From Chiloscyllium plagiosum (Eukaryota), in the NCBI RefSeq assembly GCF_004010195.1, contig NC_057757.1, positions 6,520,682-6,568,818 on the forward strand: DNA of 48,137 bases, given 5' to 3'. Under the pieces are notes generated by a model. It was not told where the DNA came from. It saw nothing but the letters and a program-made list of their open reading frames with translations, and ran no database searches. The position numbers and the translations under genes are program-made. Each line of letters starts with the position of its first letter. Position 1 is the stretch's first letter. Shown piece after piece: positions 2,336 through 38,046 of the stretch.

Positions 2336-3660
2336 AAACCTCCTTAGACCTAATCAATCCAGGTCTCTCTTAATATGTCAGTCCTGCCATTTTAGTCTTC
2401 AGTCTGCTAAACCTTTTCTATGCCACCTCCTTCCTCAGATAAGGAGACCACAACATCATGCCATATGTGATACATAAAGCTAACATTGAAAACATTAATT
2501 GCTTTCACTCACAGTTTTTGGCAATGGATACCTCGGTGAGAAATAGACTTCCTTGTTCGAATCAACCGTCATTGTGCACCTACAGGATCTGACCACCAGG
2601 TGGCTGTGCAGGGCAAGATTCCAACTCTGAGTCAGAAAGCGCCGGAGAAACTCAGCAGGTCAGGCTGGGAGAGAAAACGCAGGTAACGTTCCGAGTCCAG
2701 TTCAGAGCTGATAGCAGGTAGGCATTAATGCTGATAACGGGGTTGCGGTGGGGTGAAGAACGGGTGGATAATTGAAGGCAGAGTCTGAATCAAATAGAGG
2801 TTAGTTGCTATGCCACATCACTGGAAACATTGTGTGTTTTCTCTCGCCACAGATGCTGCCGGACCCTGCTGAGTTTCTCCAGCACTTCCCTGTGTTTATA
2901 GAGTCCTACAGCACGGAAACAGACCCTTCGATCCAAGCAGTCCATGCTGACCGTAAAACCCCAAACTAATCCAGTCCCACTTGCCCCCATTTGGCCCCCT
3001 ATCTCTCTAAACCTTTCCTGTCCTAAATGTTGTAACTGCCCCTGCATCTATCATTTCATCAGGAGTGAGGCTTGTGGCTGAAGGGGGCTGAGAGATAAAG
3101 GGGGCATGGAAGGGGGGGTAAGGTAGCTGGTAATGTGATAGGTAGGTGGAGGTGAGGGGTGAACCGCGCATCAAGTGCAGAACACCACCAGTACTAGGAG
3201 CAGTTTTGTCATGAAGTTACGCTACAGTGAGCATCTCAAAAGAGGGAGAGAGAGAAAGAGAGGTTAAGACATTTATAGAGTCATAGATTCACGAGGATGC
3301 TGCCAGGGTCGGAGGATTTGAGCTATAGGGAGAGGCTGAACAGGCTGAGGCTGTTTTCCCTTGAGGACGGAAAAATAGCTGTAGTCATGCACTCCTCCAA
3401 ACTGTGGAGGGTTCGAAGAAAATCCTAACACCGTAAGACATAGGGGCAGATATTAGGCCGTTTGGCCCATCGAGTCTACTCACCCATTCAACCATGTCTC
3501 TCAACCCCAGTCTCTCACCACCTCCCCTTGATACTCGAGAACCTATCTAACTTCGTCTTAAATACACTCGGTGGCCTCCGCAGCCATGAATTCCACAGAT
3601 TCCCCATCCTCGGCCTGAAGACGTTTCTCCTTAGGTTGTAAGGTTGCTCGCTGAGCTGGT

Positions 3661-3714
3661 AGGCTTGTTTTCAGACGTTTCGTCACCGTGCCGGGTAACA
3701 TCATCAGTGAGCCT
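3661..3714 (-). ncRNA. Minimal type I hammerhead ribozyme motif in a Penelope-like element fragment
   Basis: Minus strand: AGGC-UCA-CUGAUGA-U-GUUACC-cggcac-GGUGAC-GAAAC-GUC-UGA-aaacaa-GCCU. It has core boxes, a 6-bp stem II, a bulged stem I and palindromic ACGU in place of stem III. Confidence 0.75.
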
Positions 3715-3954
3715 CTGGTGAAGCGCTGGTGTTCTGTCACACTCACTATTTATCTGTCCCACTTCTCCGCACCTGGCCCATGACTTTGAATGTTACGATT
3801 CATCAAGTGCTTCGTAAAGGGATCCCATCTCAGCTTCCCTCCCCCCCCCTCCCAACAACAGCAGTCTCCAAGTGAAACCATTCCCCTCCCTCAGATCCCT
3901 TCATCCACCTCCAGTCCACCCACTTTAAAGTGACGCTCCGCCCTCTGGCTGTCA

Positions 3955-5375
3955 CCCCGGCCAATGGGAAGCCGTGACGGTTGACCGGCGGCAGGTGTGA
4001 CCAATAGGGAAACGTGCTCGCTGAGTGACGGTCCATCCAACCAATGGGAGGCGGGTTCGGTTGAGTGCCAGCCGGCTGGCCCAATGGAAGCTGAGGGGTG
4101 GCGACCAAAGTGTGGCGTTCTCCGGCCGGGCAGCGGACCCACGACACTGATGGACAGACCTAATAGCCAATGAGAAGTGGGAGACCCTTGCAACGGCTTC
4201 CTAACACCACCCCAGAAGGCGGGGCAGTCTGCGTACCCGACAGCAGGACCAATAGGATGCAGGTACTGTTAACAGCTGTCAACTTGACCAATGGGAGACA
4301 GGTGTGCTTGAGTGGCGGCCGAATTAACCAAACAGAAGCAGGATCTGTTGTGTGGCGGCCAACTAGACCAAGGGGAGGTGGGACGATTCAGTGGCGGCCT
4401 GCCCGACACGCGTAAATCCTGCGCACTGGACAGCTGGACTAATAGAAGGCAGCTACTGTTGACTGGCGGCCACCTGTACCACTGAGAGGAAGGTGTTGGT
4501 GGAGTGGCGGCCGGCTAGGGCAATGCGAGGAGGGTGAATAGCCATTATGACCAATCGGAGATGAGTACGGCTGATTGGCAGTCTACAAAGCCAATGGAGG
4601 GCTGAGGCCTATTGAGTGGCGGCAGTTCCGACCAATAGGAGGTAGCGTCGATTGAGAGGAGGCCAAGGTGGCCAATGGGAGGCGGGTCATGTTAAGTGGA
4701 AGTGAAAGTGACCAATAGAATACAGGGTCAGTTGAGTGACGGCCAAGCTGCGCAATTGGAAGTGAGGCATGTTGAGTGACAGCCACCCTGACCAATAGGA
4801 GACAGAGGTGGTTGAGTGGCTGCCACACTAAACAAGGGGCGAGGCATGTGAAGTGGTGGCTAAGCCGACCAATAGAAGGCAGGGTTACTTGGGTGGCAGC
4901 AAGGCTGACCAATAGAAGACAGAATCCGTTGAGTGACGACCAAGCTGCCCAAGTGGAAGTGAGGCATGTTGAGTGCTGACCAACCCAAACCAATAGGAGA
5001 TGTGGGGGGGGCGTGATGGCCACACTAACCAATGGGAGGCGAAGCATGTAAAAGTGGAGACGAAACTGACCAATGAGAGGGTTAGTTGAGTGGCGGCCAA
5101 GGTGACCAATAAAAAACAGGTGTACTTGAGTGGCGGCCAAGCTAGCCAATGGAAGGCGAGGCCAACCGAGTGACGGCCGGGCTGACCAATGGTAAGCGGG
5201 ATCCACTGACTAGCAGCCGAACCGACCAATGAGGCGCGTAATCCGTCCAAAGGGACTGATGTCCCATCCCAGGAGGCGGACACTGGCTCGCCCTCGTGAC
5301 CAATGATGGGGGTGCGTCTGGCGGGGCGTGCGCCGGCCGGACCAATGGCTGGAGAGAAGGGGCGGGGATTGGCCT
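3955..5375 (+). promoter_or_regulatory. Degenerate ~40-bp tandem array of CCAAT (NF-Y) boxes
   Basis: Hand count of 24 exact + strand CCAAT, e.g. 3961, 4001, 4041, 4081; 4551, 4591, 4632, 4672, 4712; 5106, 5146, 5186, 5226. Mostly in RRCCAATRR context. Approximate unit gaccaatrggaggcgaggcatgttgagtggcggccaagct. Confidence 0.85.
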
Positions 5376-5419
5376 CGCCTCACGGGCGCCCGGTGGAAAG
5401 TTGTCAACAGCGGGAGGGC

Positions 5420-5591
5420 CGCAGGTCCCGGGGACCGAGGCAGGGGGCTGTTGTGAAGCGACGAGGCGAGTTTGGGGTGGGTTAGGGGAGCGGCTATGGC
5501 GGCGGCGCGGGGCCTGCAGCATGGAGGGGCCTCACGGTCGGCGCTGGCGGCGGCGGAGGACGAGGAGAGGCAGCGGCGAGGAGCCTGACAG
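5420..5591 (+). other. Putative non-coding exon 1 of TSC22D4 (start approximate)
   Basis: GC-rich (GGC)n-type leader downstream of CCAAT and GC boxes, with candidate donor GACAG|gtggga at 5591/5592. Confidence 0.45.
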
Positions 5592-5741
5592 GTGGGAGAG
5601 CTCCCTCTACCCCAGGCCCCTCACTCCCACCGCCCCCCGGGGAGTCTGAGGGGAATAAATAAACCCCCTTCACCCCGGCTTCAGGAAACTCCGAGGCTTC
5701 AGGGCCTGCTCCGGAGGGAGGGAGGGAAAGTCCCCAGACCC

Positions 5742-6500
5742 GTCCCCTTGTCCCCCTGTCCCCCAAATGTCCCCCAAATCTATCCCCTTGTCCCCNNNNN
5801 NNNNNNNNNNNNNNNNNNNNNNNNNNNNNNNNNNNNNNNNNNNNNNNNNNNNNNNNNNNNNNNNNNNNNNNNNNNNNNNNNNNNNNNNNNNNNNNNNNNN
5901 NNNNNNNNNNNNNNNNNNNNNNNNNNNNNNNNNNNNNNNNNNNNNNNNNNNNNNNNNNNNNNNNNNNNNNNNNNNNNNNNNNNNNNNNNNNNNNNNNNNN
6001 NNNNNNNNNNNNNNNNNNNNNNNNNNNNNNNNNNNNNNNNNNNNNNNNNNNNNNNNNNNNNNNNNNNNNNNNNNNNNNNNNNNNNNNNNNNNNNNNNNNN
6101 NNNNNNNNNNNNNNNNNNNNNNNNNNNNNNNNNNNNNNNNNNNNNNNNNNNNNNNNNNNNNNNNNNNNNNNNNNNNNNNNNNNNNNNNNNNNNNNNNNNN
6201 NNNNNNNNNNNNNNNNNNNNNNNNNNNNNNNNNNNNNNNNNNNNNNNNNNNNNNNNNNNNNNNNNNNNNNNNNNNNNNNNNNNNNNNNNNNNNNNNNNNN
6301 NNNNNTCCCCTTGTCCCCCAAATCTATCCCCTTGTCCCCAAGTGTACCCCAAATCTATCCCCTTGTCCCCCAATGTCTCCGAAATCCATACCCTTGTCCC
6401 CAAATATCCCCCGAATCTATCCTCTTGTCCCCGAAATCTAACCCTTTATCCCCCAGTGTCCATTAAATCTCTTGCCCTCGCTCCCCGCATGTCTCAGAAA
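5742..6500. repeat. ~21-bp C-rich tandem repeat spanning a gap
   Basis: tccccttgtcccccaaatcta variants on both sides of N run 5796-6304. Confidence 0.85.
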
Positions 6501-8759
6501 TCGCTCTCCTTGCCCCCCGAATCTTACCTAAATTTAGAGTCGTACAGCACAGAAACAGATTCTTTGGTCTAACTTGTCCAATTCCTAAACTAATCTAGAA
6601 CTGTTTGTCTGTGTTTGGCCCATATCACTCTAAACCTTTATTCCGTTGTATCTAAATGTCTGCTTGGGGAGAAATCATGGGTAGAATTTGCAGGAGATCA
6701 GCTTTGGGACCCTCGTCCCTCCTGAGATACATTAATACAATAAGCCCTGGTGGACAGGGTAGGATTCTTATGGCAGGTAATTAATCATTTTGTTAGAAAG
6801 CATGTGGATAGGACATAAAAAACTGAAAGTAACTCTAAGCATGGAATGAGAGCCAAGATGCCTGGGTCACTGTGTGCCTTACTCATTGAAGGTAGCCAGA
6901 CAGGCGGTGCAGTAAGTGCACAATATCCAAGGGTTTACTAATGAGGGCGTAGAGGACAAGAACCAGGTGGTTATGATAGGCTTGGGCATGAAACAAGTTC
7001 AGGCCTCAACTGGAGGGGGATGTTGTGTCCAGTTTGTTGCACCGGGCTTTCGGAAGGATGGTGATGGCATCAGGTAGAGGGTGCAAGAAAGTTTTACAAG
7101 AATAAGGTGCAGCAGACTTTGTTTTAATCAGCACCTTATGAACTGACACTCTCAATAAACCGGCAAAAATTATATTCCTGAAATACTGTGTTGTCACAAA
7201 GTAGACAGTTGAGGGTGTAAATGAGAAGGCTTTCGGGTAAGTTTTAAGGCAAAGTTGCGTGATTATCTCAGTGATCAATAAACAGTGATGTTTGTGCCTT
7301 CTGCATGTGGTTTTTCGTGTGTGTTTTCACATTCAGTATGTTGGCCTCTGGGATGTTTGATCAACTCGTTCCCATTGTCAGCTAATAAAACGTTTGCTGT
7401 GTTTCCATTGGGGAGTTTAATTGGAAAAGTTTGGACCGTTTTCTGTGAAGACAAAAAAAAGTTTGCGAGAGAATCTGACAGACCGTCAGAGATCTGGACA
7501 GAGTAAAAGAGGGAGGAGCTGCTCCTAGTTGTGAAGGAATCGAGGACGAGAGGGCACAGCGTTTTAAACAAAATCTTGGCAAAAGCTTTGCTACTGTCAG
7601 TGGTTAGGGTCTGGAATGCGCTGCCTGCGAATGTGGTGGAGGCTGGTTCAGTTGGGGCTTTCAGAAGGGAGGTCAGCTAAGGAGTTGGGAGGTCATGTTG
7701 CGGCTGTACAGGGCATTGATTAGGCCACTTTTGAAATACTGTGTGCAATTCTGGTCTCCTCACNNNNNNNNNNNNNNNNNNNNNNNNNNNNNNNNNNNNN
7801 NNNNNNNNNNNNNNNNNNNNNNNNNNNNNNNNNNNNNNNNNNNNNNNNNNNNNNNNNNNNNNNNNNNNNNNNNNNNNNNNNNNNNNNNNNNNNNNNNNNN
7901 NNNNNNNNNNNNNNNNNNNNNNNNNNNNNNNNNNNNNNNNNNNNNNNNNNNNNNNNNNNNNNNNNNNNNNNNNNNNNNNNNNNNNNNNNNNNNNNNNNNN
8001 NNNNNNNNNNNNNNNNNNNNNNNNNNNNNNNNNNNNNNNNNNNNNNNNNNNNNNNNNNNNNNNNNNNNNNNNNNNNNNNNNNNNNNNNNNNNNNNNNNNN
8101 NNNNNNNNNNNNNNNNNNNNNNNNNNNNNNNNNNNNNNNNNNNNNNNNNNNNNNNNNNNNNNNNNNNNNNNNNNNNNNNNNNNNNNNNNNNNNNNNNNNN
8201 NNNNNNNNNNNNNNNNNNNNNNNNNNNNNNNNNNNNNNNNNNNNNNNNNNNNNNNNNNNNNNNNNNNNNNNNNNNNNNNNNNNNNNNNNNNNNNNNNNNN
8301 NNNNNNNNNNNNNNNNNNNNNNNNNNNNNNNNNNNNNNNNNNNNNNNNNNNNNNNNNNNNNNNNNNNNNNNNNNNNNNNNNNNNNNNNNNNNNNNNNNNN
8401 NNNNNNNNNNNNNNNNNNNNNNNNNNNNNNNNNNNNNNNNNNNNNNNNNNNNNNNNNNNNNNNNNNNNNNNNNNAGTGTCATGGAGATGTGATACATTAA
8501 ACAATTTTACATTAAATCTTTCAACTTTTAGAACAGGATTTGCCAATTCTTTGATATGTAAACCCAAGAACATCTTTTAAATTACATTCTCTGGATAGCT
8601 CAGCGTTTCTAACAATAAGTGTGAAATCTGTCTGTGTCCCAATGCCATGTCAGAATGACAAACCCTCTGCATAGTTTTACAGAGTTTTACACGGATTCAT
8701 GCAGGTTTTGAGCAAAATAATATGTAATTCTGCAAAAACATACTCACCCCATAACCTTC

Positions 8760-9066
8760 TATGTGTGCGTGTCGGAGCAACAGAGTGAGTGTGCATGTGA
8801 GTGTGTGCATGTGGATGTGAGTGCACATGGAAGAGTGTGTATGTAGGCTTGGTTAAGTGTCTGTGTGAGTGTGATGGAGTATGCATCTGTGAGATGGTGT
8901 GTGTGGGTGTGAGGGTGGGGGCTTTGCATGTGCATTTGAGATGAGAGGGAGGGGTGTGTTTGAGTGTGTGTGTTTGTGTGTGGGTGTCTGTGTGTGTGTG
9001 TGTGGGTAGGGGTGTCTGTGTGTGTGTGTGTGGGTAGGTGTGTCTGTTTGTCTGTCTGTGTGTGAG
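8760..9066. repeat. Imperfect (TG)n tract
   Basis: Interrupted TG dinucleotide runs. Confidence 0.85.
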
Positions 9067-9771
9067 AAAAGCTGAACAGTTCTCGCAGGATCAGTGGAAA
9101 CATGAAAGAGAGCTGATGTCCTGCCTTCAGGGTGGCTCTGCTTTGGAAGAGCCTGCTCACTGAAAGGGTCCTGTTAGACCAAGCAGCACGTTAACTGTGT
9201 ACCTGTCTCTCCTTCGGAGTCACTGTGAGTCTCTGTGTTTGCTCCCCACCTCCTGAGGCTGCTGCCAGCCCTGCTGTTTATACTGTAAATTCACTGTGAA
9301 GCAAGCATTCTGCTGCTCACGGGTGTAGTTACACAACTGTGAGCTCAAACTCGGGGAGGTGCTGTCAGTGAGGAACGAGCATGTCTGCTGGGTGGTGGGT
9401 GGATAACCAGCAGCGACCGTGTCTAGGTGAGTGGTCTTTCCCCATGCCAGCCCAACTCCATGGGTTTGAATTGTTGAGAAAAGTGAGGGAAGCTGGGGAG
9501 ACGTGTTGGAAGCTTACAGTATGTTGCCTGAACCGTTGGTGGAAACAGGTTCTGTAGCAGTTTTGAAAGGAAGGTTCTGCCAATGATTGGAGAAGCTGGA
9601 CAATTCTGGGCAGAAGGTTAAGAGTCGGGGGCCGGGTTCGAGGCGCGTGACAGAATGGTCTCCTTCCATGCTTGTGTTGTGCTTTGCCGTTGTTTCTGAA
9701 CGGGGTGGGTAGTGCGGCGTGTTGGATCTGAAGCGACTCACCTGCCTCTCTCTGTCTCTCTGACTCCGCAG

Positions 9772-10181
9772 GTCGCTTCTGCTTCTAAACAAAAAAACCC
9801 CCCAAACCTCTGGAGAGAGTTCTGGCCGTGCCCGGTGCGAGGGCAGGGAGATTTCCGTCAGCTGCTCTCATGGTGTCTCCGTCCCGTCCAATCGCTGCCT
9901 GAAAGCCGCCTCCTCGCCTCGCAGCACCTTCCGGCAGTGATGTGGAGGAATTCTGTCAGCTCCCGGGATGCTGGTGGGCACTGAGACCAGCACCTGGTAA
10001 CGCCCGAGTTTGGGGAGTCTGGGAGAGGGTATCCTCGATTACCCTCCCCTCCTGCCCTCTCTCTCTCTCTCTCACACACACACCCTTCCTGCACCGTTTG
10101 GAGAGCGAGTGTGTGTGTGCCTTCCTGCCGTCGGGAGATGTGGACAGTGAGGAGCTGAGGGGCGCGGTGGGCCGCGGCGAA
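9772..10181 (+). other. TSC22D4: 5'UTR part of the TSC22D4 ATG-containing exon
   Basis: Strong acceptor: branch-like gactcac, pyrimidine tract ctgcctctctctgtctctctgactccgcag ending at 9771, then continuous sequence to ATG 10182. Confidence 0.6.
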
Positions 10182-10964
10182 ATGATCGGCAAGAAGAAGA
10201 GCGGCTTCCAGATCACCAGTGTCACCTCGGAGTACGAAGGCAGCACCGGCGGTGAAGGGCTGAGGGAGCCACCGGGCGGAGAGGCGGAGGCTGTGGTGAA
10301 CGGGGATCCGGGTGTGGGCCCCTCGGCCGACACCGAACTGCCGGGCAAGGACGGTCGGACTAAGCCGCCCCCGGCAACAGCGGGACAAGGCACCGCCGGC
10401 AGGGAGGTGCCAAAGGAGACCGGGACAATGGCAACGGGGACGCTCCCCGGGACCAGGTCCCCCCCGCCGCCGGCCCCCAGCCCCTGCGGCTCCCGCTTCC
10501 GGGTGGTGAAGCTGGACCACGGGCTGGGCGAGCCGTATCGCCGCGGCCGGTGGACCTGCGTGGACCTGTACGTGGACCGTGAGCTGGACGCCCACGGGCT
10601 GGCCAAGGTGCTGGCCGGGAGCCGCCACGTCAACTCGCTGGACTCTCACCCGGAGCTGGGCGCCCTGCTGGCTCACCGGGCGGTCAGCCAGCTCCGGCCC
10701 CGGCCCCACGCCCCCAAGAGCCAGGGCTCCCCCCTGGGCGAGAGCCTGCCGGCACCGGGCACCGACACCCTGCACGTGCTCCTGCAGGCGGCCCGCACCC
10801 TCAGCCTGGACTCTCCGCCTGCTCCCCAGGAGAAAGGGGACCCAGCGGCGACGCCTCACCCTGCCAACCAGCCACACGGAGCCAAGGCTGGTGCCAGGGA
10901 GACGACCTCGCCCCCGACGAATGTGAAGCATCCCTCCTCGGGAGATCAGGGAGGACTGAGGAAG
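10182..10964 (+). CDS. TSC22D4: TSC22 domain family protein 4, first coding exon
   Basis: ATG at 10182 starts MIGKKKSGFQITSVTSEYEG (TSC22 long-isoform motif 1), followed by SRFRVVKLDHGLGEPYRRGRWTCVDLY (motif 2). Motif 1 at the extreme N-terminus and the GLGEPYRRGRWTCVD text match TSC22D4. The exon ends at AAG|GCAAGT (GC donor, phase 0). Confidence 0.9.
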
Positions 10965-12024: not shown

Positions 12025-12490
12025 GGGCACGATGCCTCAGTGGTTAGCACTGCTGCCGTACAGCGCCAGGGATCTGGGTTCGATTCCAACCTCTGGTGGC
12101 TGCTCATGTGGAGTTTGCACATTCTCCCCATGGCTGTATGGGTTTCCTCCCGCAATCCAAGGGGTGATTGGGCGTGCTAAATTGCCCCATAGTGCCCAGG
12201 GATGTGCAGGTTAGGGTGGATTGGCCGTGCTAAATTACCCATAGTGTTCGGGGATGTGCAGGTTAGGGTGGATTGGCCATGCTAAATTACCCATAGTGTC
12301 CAGGGATGTGCAGGTTAGGGTGGATTGGCCGTGATAGATTACCCATAGTGTCCAGGAGTGTGCACGTTAAGTGCATGAGTCTGGGGAAATGTAAAGTAAT
12401 AGGGTTCTGGGTGGGTTCCTCTTTGGAAGGTCAGTGTGGACTTGTTGGGCCGAAGGGCCTGCTTCCACACTGTTGGGGTTCTGTGATGTA
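12025..12490 (+). mobile_element. HE1-type tRNA-derived SINE with internal ~52-bp tandem expansion
   Basis: A/B-box head (cagtggttagcactgc...gggttcgattcc), repeated gattggccgtgctaaattacccatagtgtccagggatgtgcaggttagggtg, and LINE-like tail gggccgaagggcctg. Confidence 0.88.
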
Positions 12491-13441
12491 GCAGCTTGCT
12501 GCAATGGAGCGTTTGCCCGGCCTGTTTCAGGTGAGCCGGTGCCTGTCCTGACTGAGCCCCCATGAGTGCCGTGCAGTCTGTTCAAACACACTCGTGTCTG
12601 TCATTGTGTCTACTCATAATATTTACACTGGGCTCCTGCCAAAAGGTTCCTGCGCAGCGGAGCTCATCGGGATGTTCGTGCCCTGTCGGGAGTGGGGGAT
12701 GGAAGGTTTGGAGAAGGAAGCAGCGCACTGTGTTATCATCAAACCCCAGTCAGCTGGTTCACATGGAGGAAGAGTTTCCCCTGTCTTCCCTTCCGTTAGA
12801 CCGAGGATTTGCACTGTGCTGCTATTCCCTCACAAATGACAGAAGGCTGAGCCACAAGAGGAGGCCATTCACCCCAGCCAGGCTGTGCCAGCTCTCTGAA
12901 AGGGCTATCCCGCCCTCTCCCGGACTTCCCTCTGGACAGATTTGTCTGATTTCTGCGCCTGTACCCTCCTTGGAAACGTATCAGACCTCTCATACAGCCT
13001 TCCAGACCGTGTGCACATCCAGCTTATGGATCGTTTGCATCAATCTTCCCTGTGTTCCCCGTCTGTCCTGCCTGTGGGAAGTTCCCCCCCACCCCACCCC
13101 CGTCCAGTCTTGATGAAACCCCTCATGGGTTTGAGCACCTGTACTCAATGCCACGCCCCTGACCCCTGACCCTTCTCTGCTGTAAGGAGCGTGATCCCAT
13201 TTACCTCTACACCAATGGAAGCCCCTCGTCCCTGGTCGTCTTCTGATAAAGCTTCTCTGCACCTTACCCAGAGGCCTGGATGCCTTTCCTAAGGTGTGGT
13301 AGGGAGCACGGTGTTTCAGCCATTCACCCCACCCCCCCGTGGGGTTTCAGCGCGGCCTCCTCCCCTTCGGGACGTTGTTGTGATCGGGCCCCGTCACTGC
13401 ATGTGGTGGTGAAGTGACTCCTGTCTCTCCCTCCCCACCAG

Positions 13442-13623
13442 TTTCCTGAGCCTCAATCCACATCGGTGTCGCCGGTCCCCCCTGCCCAGGACGGCAGCCC
13501 TTCCCGAAAGCTCCGTGCCTCGGAGGCCAGCGCTGCCGGCTCTCTCCGGTTCGTCTCGCCCATGCAGACGCTGGCCAAGTCCATGCTGTCGGTCGGAACG
13601 CAGCCGGACAGTGACGACGACAG
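13442..13623 (+). CDS. TSC22D4: TSC22D4 second coding exon
   Basis: Acceptor ctgtctctccctccccaccag|TTT, phase 0. Encodes FPEPQSTSVSPVPP...MQTLAKSMLSVGTQPDSDDD(S), resembling TSC22D4 LAHSMLAISGHLDSDDDS. Donor GACAG|gtacgc is phase 2, the usual junction before the TSC-box exons. Confidence 0.85.
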
Positions 13624-13676: not shown

Positions 13677-13840
13677 ACCCCAATCCCCCACAGAGGGAGG
13701 GTCGGGGGGGGGGAGCGACAGACCCACGAGACCCCCAATCCCCCACGGAGGGAGGGTGGGGAGTGACAGGCCCGCGAGACCCCCAATCCCCTACAGAGGG
13801 AGGGTGGGGAGCGACAGGCCTGTGAGACCCCCAATCCCGT
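13677..13840. repeat. 48-bp tandem repeat, ~3.3 copies
   Basis: acccccaatcccccacggagggagggtggggagtgacaggcccgcgag units at 13731 and 13779 plus flanking copies. Confidence 0.85.
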
Positions 13841-24077: not shown

Positions 24078-24925
24078 ATGGCACGGTGGTGCACTGGTTA
24101 GCACTGCTGCCTCACAGAGTCAGGGGCCTGGGTTCGAGTCAGGTGACTGTGTGGAGTTTGCACGTTCTCCCCGTGTCTGTGTGGGTTTCCTCCAACTGCA
24201 GCGGTTTCAATAGACAAAAGGTCCAGGAGTGGGCCATTCGGCCCTTTGGGCCAGCACCACCATTCATCATGATCATGGCTGATCATCCACAATCAGTATC
24301 CTGTTCCTGCCTTATCCCCATTACCCTTGGTTCCACTATCTGTAAGAGCTCTATCCATCTCTTTCTTGGAAGTATCCAGAGACTTGGCCTCCACTGCCTT
24401 CTGGGGCAGATTTCCTCCCACATTCTAAAGATGTGTAGGTTAGGGTGGATTGGTCAAGATAAATTACCCATAGTGTCCAGGGGTTGCAAGTTAGGGTGGA
24501 TTGACCATGCTAAATTATCCCATAGCGTCCAGGAATGTGCAGGTGAGGGTGGATAGGCCATGCTAAATTATCCATAGTGCCCAGGGATGTGCAGGTGAGG
24601 GTGGATTGGCCGTGCTAAATTATCCATAGTGCCCAGGGATGTGCAGGTGAGGGTGGATTGGCTGTGCTAAATTATCCATAGTGCCCAGGGATGTGCAGGT
24701 GAGGGTGGATTGGCCGTGCTAAATTAACACACGTTGCCCAGGGATGTGCAGGTTAGGGTAGATTGGCCGTGCTAAATTGCCCCACGGTACCCAGAAAAGC
24801 TCAATAGATTAGGCGTGGGGGAATGCAGGGTTACAGAGAGTAGAGTGGAAGGTTGGGTCTGGGTGAGATGCCTTTGAGGGCCAGTGTGGACCCACTGGGC
24901 CAAGGGTCCTGTTTCCACGATGCAG
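24078..24925 (+). mobile_element. HE1-type SINE with nested LINE tail (~24208-24410) and ~7 internal 51-52-bp repeats
   Basis: Head at 24078, interruption by a different LINE 3' end, then tandem gattggccgtgctaaattatccatagtgcccagggatgtgcaggtgagggtg. Confidence 0.88.
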
Positions 24926-32100: not shown

Positions 32101-32644
32101 CACAGGGCTGTCTGAGAGTCAAACTCATTCCGTTACACATTAGCCACCTGAGTATTCACTTCCCCTTGAAATCAACTCGGCATCTCTCTGTTATCTGCAC
32201 CTAATGCCTGTCTCTGCTATGAGCCCTCGATACTTGTGATGCCCCTTCAGGTCCACCTGACATGGGGTTCCTGAAACAAACAGCACAAGAGCTCAGTCTT
32301 TCAGAAGTCCGGTCACCACTTGGCATTTCGTGTACATTACATCTCTAGTTCCAAATGAGGTCTTTGTGATGCTCCCACGCCTGTTCTCTGACATTGCGAA
32401 CGTGGGCAGAATAAATCTCCTGGAATTGCAACACAAAGACCCCCACATCATTGGTGAACATTACATTAGTGTCTGCGACATTTGGAGAAATTCTGGAACA
32501 TTCTGATCTCATGCCTGACCCACATTCGCACTCGCGTTCCTGTCAGGAGGCAAACAGTTTTCTCGGTGGGAACTCTGACTGGTTCTAATCCCTCTGAGCT
32601 TTAATCGTACTAAAGCAGGCATTTCTGTCCTCTTAGTAACACTA

Positions 32645-35600
32645 ACTCTACTGTCAGGCAGCAAGTAACTCTTACCCTGCTGAATATACAGAGTGTACTG
32701 TCAGACAGCGAGTAACCCTGACCCTGCTAAATATACAGTGTACTGTCACACAGCGAGTAACCCTAACCCTGCTGAATATGCAGTGTACTGTCACACAGCG
32801 AGTAACACTTACCCTGCTGAATAAACACAGACTGTACTGTCAGACAGCGAGTAATCCATACCCTGCTGAATAAACACAGACTGTACTGTCACACAGCGAG
32901 TAACCCTTAGCCATCTGAATACACGCTGACTGTACTGTCACACAGCGAGTAACCCTGACCCTGCTGAATAAACACTGACTGTACTGTCAGACAGCGAGTA
33001 ACCTTTACCCTGCTGAATAAACACTGACTGTACTGTCTCACAGCGAGTAACCCTTACCCTGCTGAATACACACTGACTGTACTGTCTCACAGCGAGTAAC
33101 CCTTACCCTGCTGAATACACACGGACTGTACTGTCTCACAGCGAGTAACCCTTACCCTGCTGAATACACACTGACTGGTCACACAGCGAGTAACNNNNNN
33201 NNNNNNNNNNNNNNNNNNNNNNNNNNNNNNNNNNNNNNGAATACACACGGACTGTGCTGTCACACAGCGAGTAACCCTTACCCTGCTGAATAAACACTGA
33301 CTGTACTGTCTCACAGCGAGTAACCCTTACCCTGCTGAATACACACTGACTGTACTGTCTCACAGCGAGTAACCCTTACCCTGCTGAATACACACTGACT
33401 GTGCTGTCACACAGCGAGTAACCCTTACCCTGCTGAATACACACGGACTGTGCTGTCACACAGCGAGTAACCCTTACCCTGCAGAATAAACACTGACTGT
33501 ACTGTCTCACAGCGAGTAACCCTTACCCTGCTGAATACACACTGACTGTACTGTCTCACAGCGAGTAACCCTTACCCTGCTGAATACACACGGACTGTGC
33601 TGTCACACAGCGAGTAACCCTTACCCTGCAGAATAAACACTGACTGTACTGTCTCACAGCGAGTAACCCTTACCCTGCTGAATACACACTGACTGTACTG
33701 TCTCACAGCGAGTAACCCTTACCCTGCTGAATACACACGGACTGTACTGTCTCACAGCGAGTAATCCTTACCCTGCTGAATACACACTGACTGTACTGTC
33801 TCACAGCGAGTAACCCTTACCCTGCTGAATACACACGGACTGTGCTGTCACACAGCGAGTAACCCTTACCATGCTGAATAAACACTGACTGTACTGTCAG
33901 ACAGCGAGTAATCCATACCCTGCTGAATAAACACAGACTGTACTGTCACACAGCGAGTAACCCTTACCCTGCTGAATAAACACAGACTGTACTGTCATAC
34001 AGCGAGTTACCCTAACCCTGCTGAATATACACTAACTGTACTGTCACATAGCGAGTTACCCTTACCATGCTGAATAAACACTGACTGTACTGTCAGACAG
34101 CGAGTAATCCATACCCTGCTGAATATACACTGACTGCACTGTCAGACACTGATTAACCCTTACCCTGATGAATATACACTGACTGTACTGTCACACAGTG
34201 AGTAACCCTTACCCTGCTGAATATACACTGACTGTACTGTCAGACAGCAAGTAACCCTTACCTTGCTGAATATACACTGACTGTACTGTCACACAGTGAG
34301 TAACCCTTACCCTACTGAATATACACTGACTGTTCTGTCACACAGCGTGTAACCTTTACCCTGCTGAATAAACACAGACTGTACTGTCACACAGCGAGTA
34401 ACCCTTACCCTGCTGAATAAACACAGACTGTGCTGTCAGACAGCGAGTTACCCTTACCCTGCTGAATATACACTAACTGTACTGTCACATAGCGAGTTAC
34501 CCTTACCATGCTGAATAAACACTGACTGTACTGTCAGACAGCGAGTAATCCATACCCTGCTGAATATACACTGACTGCACTGTCAGACACCGATTAACCC
34601 TTACCCTGCTGAATATACACTGACTGTACTGTCACACAGCGAGTAACCCTTACCCTGCTGAATATACACTGACTGTACTGTCAGACAGCAAGTAACCCTT
34701 ACCTTGCTGAATATACACTGACATTACTGTCACACAGTGAGTAACCCTTACCCTACTGAATATACACTGACTGTTCTGTCACACAGCGAGTAACCCTTAC
34801 CCTGCCGAATATACACTGACTGCACTATTACACAGCGAGTAACCCTTACCCAGCGTAATACACACAGACTGTGCTGTCACACAGTGAGTAACCCTTACCC
34901 TGCTGAATATACACTGACTGTACTGTCACACAGCGTGTAACCCTTACCCTGCTGAATATACACTGACTGTACTGTCAGACAGCGAGTAACCCTTACCTTG
35001 CTGAATATACACTGACTGTACTGTCACAGAGCGAGTAACCCTTACCCTACTGAATAAACACTGACTGTGCTGTCAGACAGCGAGTAACCCTTACCCTGCT
35101 GAATAAACACTGACTGTACTGTCACACAGCGAGTTACCCTTACCCTGCTGAATATACACTGACTGTACTGTCACACAGCGAGTAACCCTTACCCTGCTGA
35201 ATAAACACTAACTGTACTGTTACACAGCGAGTAACCTTTACCCTGCTGAATATACACTGACTGTACTGTCTCACAGCGTGTAACCTTTAACCTGCTGAAT
35301 AAACACTGACTGTACTGTCAGACAGCGAATAACCCTTACCCTGCTGAATAAACACTGACTGTACTATTACACAGCGAGTAACCCTTACCCTGCTGATTAT
35401 GCACTGACTGTACTATTACACAGAGAGTAACCCTTACCCTGCCGAATACACGCTGACTGTACTGTCACACAGCGAGTAACCCTTTCGCTACTGAATATAC
35501 ACAGACTGTACTGTCACACAGCGAGTAACCCTTATCCTGCTGAATAAACACTGACTGTAATGTCACACAGCGAGTAACCTTTAACCTGCTGAATAAACAC

Positions 35601-38046
35601 TGACTGTACTGTCACACAGCGAGTAACCTTTAACCTGCTGAATAAACACTGACTGTACTGTCTCACAGCGTGTAACCCTTACCCTGCTGAATATACACTG
35701 ACTGTACTATTACACAGCGAGTAATCCTTACCCTACTGAATATACACTGACTGTACTATTACACAGCGAGTAACCCTTACCCTGCTGAATACATGCTGAC
35801 TGTACTGTCAGACAGCGAGTAACCCTTTCGCTACTGAATATACACTGACTGTACTGTCAGACAGCGAGTAACCCTTACCCTGCTGAATAAACACAGACTG
35901 TACAGTCTCACAGCGTGTAATCCTTACCCTGCTGAATATACAGTGTGTACTGTCAGACAGCGAGTAACCCTTACCCTGCAGAATATACACTGACTGTACT
36001 GTTACACTGCGAGTAACCCTAACCCTGCTGAATAAATACTGACTCTGCTGTCACACAGCGAGTAACCCTTACCCTAGTGAATATACACTGACTATACTGT
36101 CACACAGAGTGTAACCCTTACCCAGCTGAATCTACACTGGCTCTACTGTCACTCAGCGAGTAATCCTTACCCTGCTGAATAAACACTCACTATAATGTCA
36201 CACAGCGAGTAACCCTTACTCTGCTGAATATACACTGACTGTACTGTTACACTGCGAGTAACCCTAACCCTGCTGAATAAATACTGACTCCAATGTCACA
36301 CAGCGAGTAATCCTTACCCTACTGAACATACACTGACTCTACTGTCACACAGCGAGTAACTCTTACCCGACTGAATATACACTGACTCTACTTTCACACA
36401 GCGAGTAACCCTTACCCTGCTGAATATACACTACCTGTACTGTCACACAGAGTGTAACCCTTACCCAGCTGAATATACACTGACTGTACTGTCACACAGC
36501 GTGTAACCCTTACCCTGCTGAATATACACTGACTGTACTATTACACAGCGAGTAACCCTTATCCTGCTGAATATACACTGACTATACTATCAGACAGCGA
36601 GTAACCCTTACCCTGCTGAATATACACTGACTGTACTGTTACACAGCGATTAACCCTTACCCTGCTGAATAAACACTGACTGTACTGTCACTCAGCGAGT
36701 AACCCTGACCCTGCTGATTATACACTGACTGAACTGTCACGCAGCGAGTAAACCTTAGCCTGCTGAATATACAGAGTGTACTGTCACACAGCGAGTAACC
36801 CTTACCCTGCTGAATATACACTGATTGTACTGTCAGGCAGTGAGTAACCCTTACCCTGCTGAATATACACTGACTGTACTGTCACGCAGCGAGTAACCCT
36901 TAGCCTGCTGAATATACAGAGTGTACTGTCAGACAGCGAGTAACCCTTACCCTGCTGAATATACACTGATTGTACTGTCAGGCAGCGAGTAACCCTTACC
37001 CTGCTAAACAAACGCTGACTGCACTGTCACACAGCGAGTAGTCCTAACCCTGCTGAATAAATACTGACCGTACTGTAACACAACGAGTAACCCTTATCCT
37101 GCTGAATAAACACTGACTGTACTATAACACAGCGAGTAACCCTTACCCTGCTGAATACATGCTGACTGTACTGTCAGACAGCGAGTAACCCTTACACTCC
37201 TGAATATACACTGACTGTCCTGTCACACAGCATGTAACCCTTATCCTGCTGAATATACACTGACTGAACTGAAACTCAGCGAATAACCCTTACCCTGCTG
37301 AATATACACTGACTGTATTGTCACACAGCATGTAACCATTACCATGCTGAATATACACTGACTGAACTGTCACTCAGCGAGTAACCCTTACCCTGCTGAA
37401 TATACACTGACTGTACTGTCACACAGCGTGTAACCAATACCATGCTGAATATACACTGACTGTACTGTTACACAGCGAGTAACCCTTACCCTGCTGAATA
37501 AACAAGAGTGTATTGTCACACAGCGAGTAACCCTTACCCTGCTGAATATACACTGACTGTACTGTCTCACAGCGTGTAACCCTTACCCTCCTGAATATAC
37601 ACTGACTGTACTATTACACAGCGAGTAACCCTTACCCAGCTGAATATACACTGACTCTACTGTCACACAGCAAGTAACCCTTACCCTGCTGAATATACAC
37701 TGCCTGTACTGTCACACAGCGAGTAACCCTTACCCTGCTAAATATACACTGACTCTACTGTCACCCAGCGAGTAACCCTTACCCTACTGAATATACACTG
37801 ACTGTACTGTTACACAGCGATTAACCCTTACCCTGCTGAATAAACACTGACTGTACTGTCACTCAGCGAGTAACCCTGACCCTGCTGAATATACACTGAC
37901 TGTACTGTTACACAGCGATTAACCCTGACCCTGCTGAATATACACAGACTCTACTGTCACACAGCGAGTAACCCTTATCCTACTGAATATACACCGGCTC
38001 TACTGTCACTCAACGAGTAACCCTTACCCTGCTGAATATACACTGC
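32645..38046. repeat. 49-bp minisatellite, ~110 copies, running into an assembly gap
   Basis: Unit cacagcgagtaacccttaccctgctgaatatacactgactgtactgtca (e.g. cagcgag at 33314 and 33363), with occasional shorter variants and a small internal gap at 33195-33238. Confidence 0.97.

Follow-up and report, generated by a model that had tools for sequence, protein, structure and literature searches.

The closest described relative of the element analysed here is the DECA-CCAAT composite, in which GAnnGAC lies 11 bp before CCAAT and the pair is bound by PBX/PREP and NF-Y with Sp2 bridging; models tolerate 10–12 bp (10.64898/2026.02.16.706105). The bias to 11 bp also appears in PMC7793273, and co-occupancy in zebrafish is described in PMC6023610 and 10.1101/720102. 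As far as the available text of these four sources goes, the composite is known as a single copy or a few copies per promoter. In the mouse Sp2 promoter there are five CCAAT boxes, three of them with DECA at 10–11 bp (10.64898/2026.02.16.706105). NF-Y itself bends DNA by ~80° over ~30 bp, maintains a nucleosome-free upstream border and sets the start site (10.64898/2026.02.16.706105; PMC4368557). We analysed a window of 48,137 nucleotides of shark DNA, the window being the whole stretch at its full length. It holds an array that shares the order, orientation, 11-bp distance and promoter position of the known composite, but is a 36-unit tandem in which the PREP half-site is mostly GGC.

Several other systems combine repeated CCAAT boxes. 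Sp2 peaks of the highest strength include several CCAAT pairs with a mean distance of ~35 bp (PMC4368557). The array resembles these multi-CCAAT Sp2/NF-Y promoters in its tandem CCAAT boxes, and their Sp2 signal rises with box number; they have several box pairs, however, and the available text of the same source does not describe them as a 24-box tandem-repeat array. The U3 region of human ERV-9/LTR12 carries 5–17 closely related units of ~41 nt with CCAAT, GATA and MZF1 words (PMC11853044). Like the array, it has CCAAT units of about 40 bp that share one orientation and precede a start with no TATA or a weak one, but it belongs to a dispersed human retroviral family, whereas the shark array consists of 36 loose units for which no LTR ends were found. 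The TALE site of human MER57 is found 3′ of CCAAT, at a long distance (PMC12065363), in contrast to the 5′ location at 11 bp here. The ABO minisatellite has a 43-bp unit in near-identical copies. Four of its CBF/NF-Y repeats raise reporter activity (PMC2988417). It likewise places tandem NF-Y motifs at a cellular gene, but with at most four copies ~4 kb upstream, as opposed to 36 old, diverged copies that touch exon 1. By analogy, the array may function as the enhancers of LTR12 U3 and the ABO minisatellite do, but it is not LTR12; no GATA or GTGGGGA (MZF1) word occurs inside it. The component parts are already known. The array itself is real and non-random and lies at a verified first exon, and a literature search, outside which most subscription papers fell, returned no description of it and none of a CCAAT array in any shark or of DECA-CCAAT elements in tandem.

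Architecture of the array

Between 3961 and 5346 the plus strand has 24 exact CCAAT, where composition predicts 0.8; two reverse copies lie within 3940–5350. The density is 17.0 per kb in the array and 1.0 per kb across the remaining window. Fourteen of the 23 successive spacings are 39–41 bp and six are 74–86 bp (two units); the others are 36, 42 and 263 bp. The top autocorrelation peak is at a period of 40 (0.437, against a left-flank maximum of 0.30), followed by 197 and then 80. The consensus of the NF-Y box is a purine-flanked CCAAT of the RRCCAAT type. This context is present at 23 of the 24 array boxes and at 9 of the 45 CCAAT elsewhere in the window; the extended form RRCCAAT[CGA]R is found at 23/24 and 0/45, respectively, with flanks that are partly inherited from one unit.

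Wrap-around alignment of 3940–5350 to a circular consensus, seeded with arbitrary 40-mers and without motif anchoring, gives 36 slots of a 40-bp unit (Table 1) with a mean pairwise identity of 53%. The left border is sharp, at ~3940, and the final 100 bp align weakly. CCAAT is lost in 12 of the 36 slots. The tally by block in Table 1 covers 35 slots, one slot having no aligned first C, and the block past 5240 keeps the box in two of its three slots. Tandem Repeats Finder detects only the best part of the array, as a 40-bp stretch at 4709–4826 and a 197-bp higher-order repeat at 4708–5155. The original prediction of about 24 CCAAT boxes in a single orientation at a ~40-bp period, in strongly diverged units that keep the RRCCAAT core, agrees with these data. 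Its outline of the array also stands, with the border moved to ~3940 and with the 12 lost boxes and the five-unit duplication added.

Table 1. Coordinates of features in the window
Feature	Position	Strand	Details
Diverged tandem array, 36 slots	3940..5350	+	Unit: DECA-like decamer, 9 bases, CCAAT, purine-rich tail
Distal block	3940..4100	+	CCAAT intact in 4/4 slots
Decayed block	4100..4530	+	CCAAT intact in 3/10 aligned slots; lag-5 duplication 4227-4306 vs 4419-4498
Core block	4530..5240	+	CCAAT intact in 15/18 slots
Higher-order duplication, 197 bp (five units)	4708..5155	+	2.3 copies, 78% matches
Strict GAnnGAC-11bp-CCAAT	4023..4045	+	
Strict GAnnGAC-11bp-CCAAT	4149..4171	+	Strongly rearranged unit
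Strict GAnnGAC-11bp-CCAAT	4774..4796	+	With perfect DECA decamer (start 4773)
Strict GAnnGAC-11bp-CCAAT	5168..5190	+	
CTAAT slot	4439..4443	+	C at 4440 in one organism B contig, giving CCAAT
GC box	5359..5367	+	Between last CCAAT and exon 1
Non-coding exon 1, TSC22D4	5366..5591	+	Spliced contig of run X14; 5366 is the contig end, not a mapped start
Intron 1	5592..9771	+	GT...AG
Exon 2	9772..10964	+	Start codon 10182; 3′ end from tblastn match
Next coding exon (approximate)	13439..13621	+	tblastn

In the four of 24 listed runs that were examined, no sequencing contig matched the array at below 90% identity; it is mostly uncovered there, and the result carries no weight against an LTR family. 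Contigs internal to the array in runs X9 and X11 have a depth of 3–5, at which RNA or DNA origin is not distinguishable. At position 4440, runs X9 and X5 (organism A) match the CTAAT of the window; the organism B contig with C has a depth of 3.3, under the caution level for errors. A search of 2500–7700 against Rfam gave no match. Degenerate one- and two-unit patterns had no match in metagenome and viral contigs, which hold little vertebrate DNA, so this carries no weight. A coding reading of the array was dropped, as its frames run from stop to stop and reach at most 208 aa.

Promoter position and the downstream gene

The protein predicted from the frame at 10182 matches TSC22D4 of Hemiscyllium at 94% and of Rhincodon at 69%, and an unnamed protein of Chiloscyllium punctatum at 98%, which identifies the gene downstream of the array as TSC22D4 and suggests a bamboo shark or a close relative as the origin of the window. 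A contig of run X14 spans 5366–5593 without differences, and its next 24 letters match from 9774; splice signals are present in the window as GT at 5592 and AG at 9770–9771. Together these point to a splice that joins non-coding exon 1 to the TSC22D4 coding exon, supported by one contig from one run; contigs cannot map the start site, which could be further upstream. From the end of the last CCAAT to the first base of the spliced contig (5366) is a distance of 20 bp, and this places the array at the promoter. That the array would lie upstream of TSC22D4 had been proposed before, and it in fact abuts a real first exon. The boxes nearest to the contig start, which is not a mapped transcription start, are at 5342, 5300 and 5226; an NF-Y box typically lies at −60/−100 from the transcription start (PMC12065363). 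No TATA word is found in 3700–5800. The GC box next to exon 1 (Table 1) is one that we take to be a Sp/KLF-type word.

The GC content of the array is 58% and its CpG observed/expected ratio is moderately raised at 0.63 (0.54 in the middle and 0.85 in the proximal part); three stretches of the flanks give 0.41, 0.42 and 0.32. Within the unit, CpG columns are conserved at 0.59 and other G/C columns at 0.68. This pattern would fit partial protection from methylation; it does not demonstrate an open island.

The exon-2 peptide, which does not include the TSC box, matched no Pfam family. The TSC-box exons were not found by tblastn in 13621–48137 and may fall in an unread stretch or outside the window. 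In exon 1 there is an upstream ORF of 30 codons (5496–5588) and, at 5521, another ATG; the exon 2 region ahead of the TSC22D4 start (9870–10160) has four more upstream ORFs, all short. At the start of intron 1, another X14 contig (5640–5790, depth 9.8) passes two AATAAA words and could be unspliced RNA or DNA. At 4486 a contig of run X5 departs from the array, and its next 27 letters match ~16325, a short G/A-rich word being common to both places. This junction may reflect chimerism in the library or an allele with an 11.8-kb deletion that lacks exons 1–3.

Conservation of the CCAAT box

Mean column conservation is 0.894 for CCAAT, 0.736 for the ten decamer columns and 0.634 for the 25 spacer columns. 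The best five-column window is CCAAT, or overlaps it, in 74 of 78 seeds (39–41 bp). CCAAT had been predicted to be better conserved than the other unit positions, and the unit alignment proposed as the check on this bears it out (89% against 63%).

Starting from the consensus, neutral arrays were simulated by duplicating blocks and introducing mutations, then aligned by the same procedure. They were scored by the best five-column window anywhere, which allows for ascertainment. The observed excess was reached in 0/360 pilot runs, in 1/4200 runs of six models, some with CpG and G/C bias and some without, and in 7/2500 runs of five models in which column rates followed a gamma distribution. In 15 of the 4200 runs the commonest 5-mer was counted 24 times or more. 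Mean identity was 0.66–0.69 in the simulations and 0.69 in the observed array. On a tree that used all 40 columns of 35 units, without the partial last one, the parsimony steps per column are 3.8 for CCAAT, 7.0 for DECA and 9.5 for the spacers.

Recent duplicates were compared in nine hand-chosen lag-5 pairs (six among the most similar and three that extend blocks, one unit being used twice). CCAAT cells differ in 8/45 cases and spacer cells in 70/225 (one-sided p 0.049). Constraint on CCAAT is thus clear over the history of the array and weakly supported for recent times. That CCAAT is kept far better than the other parts of the unit suggests an unusually large landing platform for NF-Y.

The second core

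GAnnGRC-CCAAT pairs at 6–17 bp occur 10 times, and the distance is exactly 11 bp in nine; this shared spacing is a single inherited event, recognised post hoc. Four of the nine are strict GAnnGAC (Table 1) and five are GAnnGGC, among 24 boxes. The decamer TGAnTGACAG is present 11 bp before CCAAT with at most two mismatches at 11 of the 24 boxes and with at most one at five. When distances of 9–13 bp are allowed, the best decamer lies at 11 bp for 20 of the 24. The chance of finding the composite in one ancestral unit is 0.002 at 11 bp and 0.005 at 10–12 bp, figures that by our own estimate should perhaps be raised about tenfold given the several known CCAAT-aligned partners.

The original prediction saw a homotypic NF-Y platform with an NKX2-type second core. 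As an account of the whole locus this would mean that the boxes were selected and that the second core is an inherited passenger or serves a different factor (NKX2, for example), which we consider unlikely. It draws on several features of the decamer. DECA cells in the recent duplicates differ in 27/90 cases, the same rate as in the spacers, and DECA quality and CCAAT survival show no coupling (11/16 versus 13/19, p 1.0), so joint conservation was not found. The half-site for PREP is mostly GGC instead of GAC: its A position is G in 24 of 36 slots and A in seven, the latter matching the background G-to-A level. No text on tolerance of GGC by PBX/PREP was found in the literature searched. The word TTGAGTG, which we take to be NKX2-type, occurs 10 times in the array. 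Across the array, however, the decamer columns beat the spacers, an excess reached in 17/4200 neutral runs; that it was reached in 62/2500 runs of the harsher null with gamma column rates counts against the composite. The parsimony steps per base also favour DECA over NKX2. NKX2 requires the G of AGTG, which has taken eight steps, whereas four are counted for the G of TGA and five for the decamer's final G, beyond the NKX2 word. In DECA recognition the G of AGTG is uncontacted (10.64898/2026.02.16.706105).

The second core fits a DECA-like TALE (PBX/PREP) site at the published 11-bp distance better than an NKX2 site, a claim we grade weaker than that for CCAAT. Of the earlier proposal, the recurring core and the preferential retention of CCAAT stand, and the NKX2 identity and the purely homotypic unit do not; the unit is probably composite. 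The composite is the likely ancestral monomer and would work only at some units. In one unit a near-palindrome at 4270–4281 stands in place of the decamer, one mismatch from the TALE dimer site TGACAG-CTGTCA. Reading the GGCGG core as a YY1 or E2F site was set aside on motif grounds.

Origin and proposed mechanism

Our preferred reading, which we hold to be somewhat probable, is that a DECA-CCAAT promoter module was tandemly amplified upstream of TSC22D4 and that its NF-Y boxes have been kept by selection, redundantly. An ordinary vertebrate module, a DECA-like site 11 bp before CCAAT, would have been amplified by repeated unequal duplication, most recently in five-unit blocks, to ~36 copies. 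The copies would then have diverged, with purifying selection sparing CCAAT. NF-Y is predicted to bind many of the boxes, to keep the region nucleosome-poor and to fix the start site of this TATA-less promoter. PBX/PREP, bridged by Sp2, would join NF-Y at about one-third to one-half of the intact units, and together with Sp2 would stabilise NF-Y at the canonical ones. A 40-bp unit would leave room for both complexes. Single boxes could be lost because the boxes are redundant.

The earlier suggestion of an LTR remnant gives a different origin. In this view an old LTR element of the shark would have had the array as its U3 enhancer, selected while the element was mobile and later adopted as the TSC22D4 promoter, as human LTR12 copies have been; we regard this as rather unlikely. 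The layout is LTR12-like, with ~41-nt CCAAT repeats in one orientation directly before a TATA-less start (PMC11853044), two AATAAA words follow exon 1 (5654 and 5658), and the flanks are rich in interspersed repeats. Against this, TG...CA ends with a matching target duplication of 4–6 bp were found in 3 of 1275 pairs, where ~5 are expected by chance, the right flank being partly unread and old ends prone to decay. The array, with 36 units at 53% identity, is longer and looser than the 5–17 closely related units of LTR12, CCAAT is somewhat spared even in the recent duplicates, and the window contains no second copy of the array. With termini and target-site duplication not beyond chance, and with none of the GATA and MZF1 words of LTR12 in the array, the suggestion finds no support in the window. 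A neutral old minisatellite that began from a CCAAT-containing unit, its conservation reflecting mutation-rate differences and shared descent, would suit the many minisatellites of the window, the loss of 12/36 boxes, the one box that apparently differs between close relatives and the borderline recent-duplicate test, but is highly improbable given that the best-window excess is reached in 8/6700 pooled runs (models with late duplication and with rates biased at CpG or G/C or varying randomly by column) and at the CCAAT columns themselves in 0/2500 gamma-rate runs, and that the array terminates at exon 1.

The 36 diverged copies at one locus provide a self-contained evolutionary footprint of the bases that matter in an NF-Y module, without a second species. 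The array is also a natural substrate for questions on NF-Y: simultaneous occupancy of adjacent boxes, spacing limits on cooperativity with PBX/PREP and Sp2, and nucleosome exclusion. The DECA-CCAAT grammar of mammals and zebrafish would extend to cartilaginous fish, and the locus would be an example of a promoter that grew by amplifying its own module in tandem. Were binding limited to the proximal boxes, it would be no more than a curious repeat.

A bolder form of the proposal, quite improbable in our view, would see in the array a naturally occurring polymer in which the TALE/NF-Y/Sp2 composite is repeated in 36 units, many of them co-occupied, with ~1.4 kb coated by NF-Y instead of nucleosomes. 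A length of 40 bp would then be about the smallest repeat that fits both complexes, the LTR12 and ABO periods would reflect a common steric rule, and amplification would be a general means of tuning output in shark promoters. In a geometry calculation, an 80° bend per unit with a phase shift of about −69° gives ~3.5 units per superhelical turn. The literature searched yielded no account of a 33-bp spacing rule.

Other repeats in the window

About 180 bp to the left of the array, the stretch 3637–3760 resembles what we take to be the end of a shark Penelope-like element. A 48-bp minisatellite at 13706–13838, unrelated to the array, directly follows exon 3; it has CCAAT in poor flanks and, at 13717, a chance strict GAnnGAC-11-CCAAT, which weighs against the composite reading of the array. 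Two related 52-bp tandem arrays (12162–12369 and 24430–24778), presumably SINE-derived, have ATTGG in each unit. About 110 tandem copies of a 49-bp unit, at 88% identity, make up 32638–38045.
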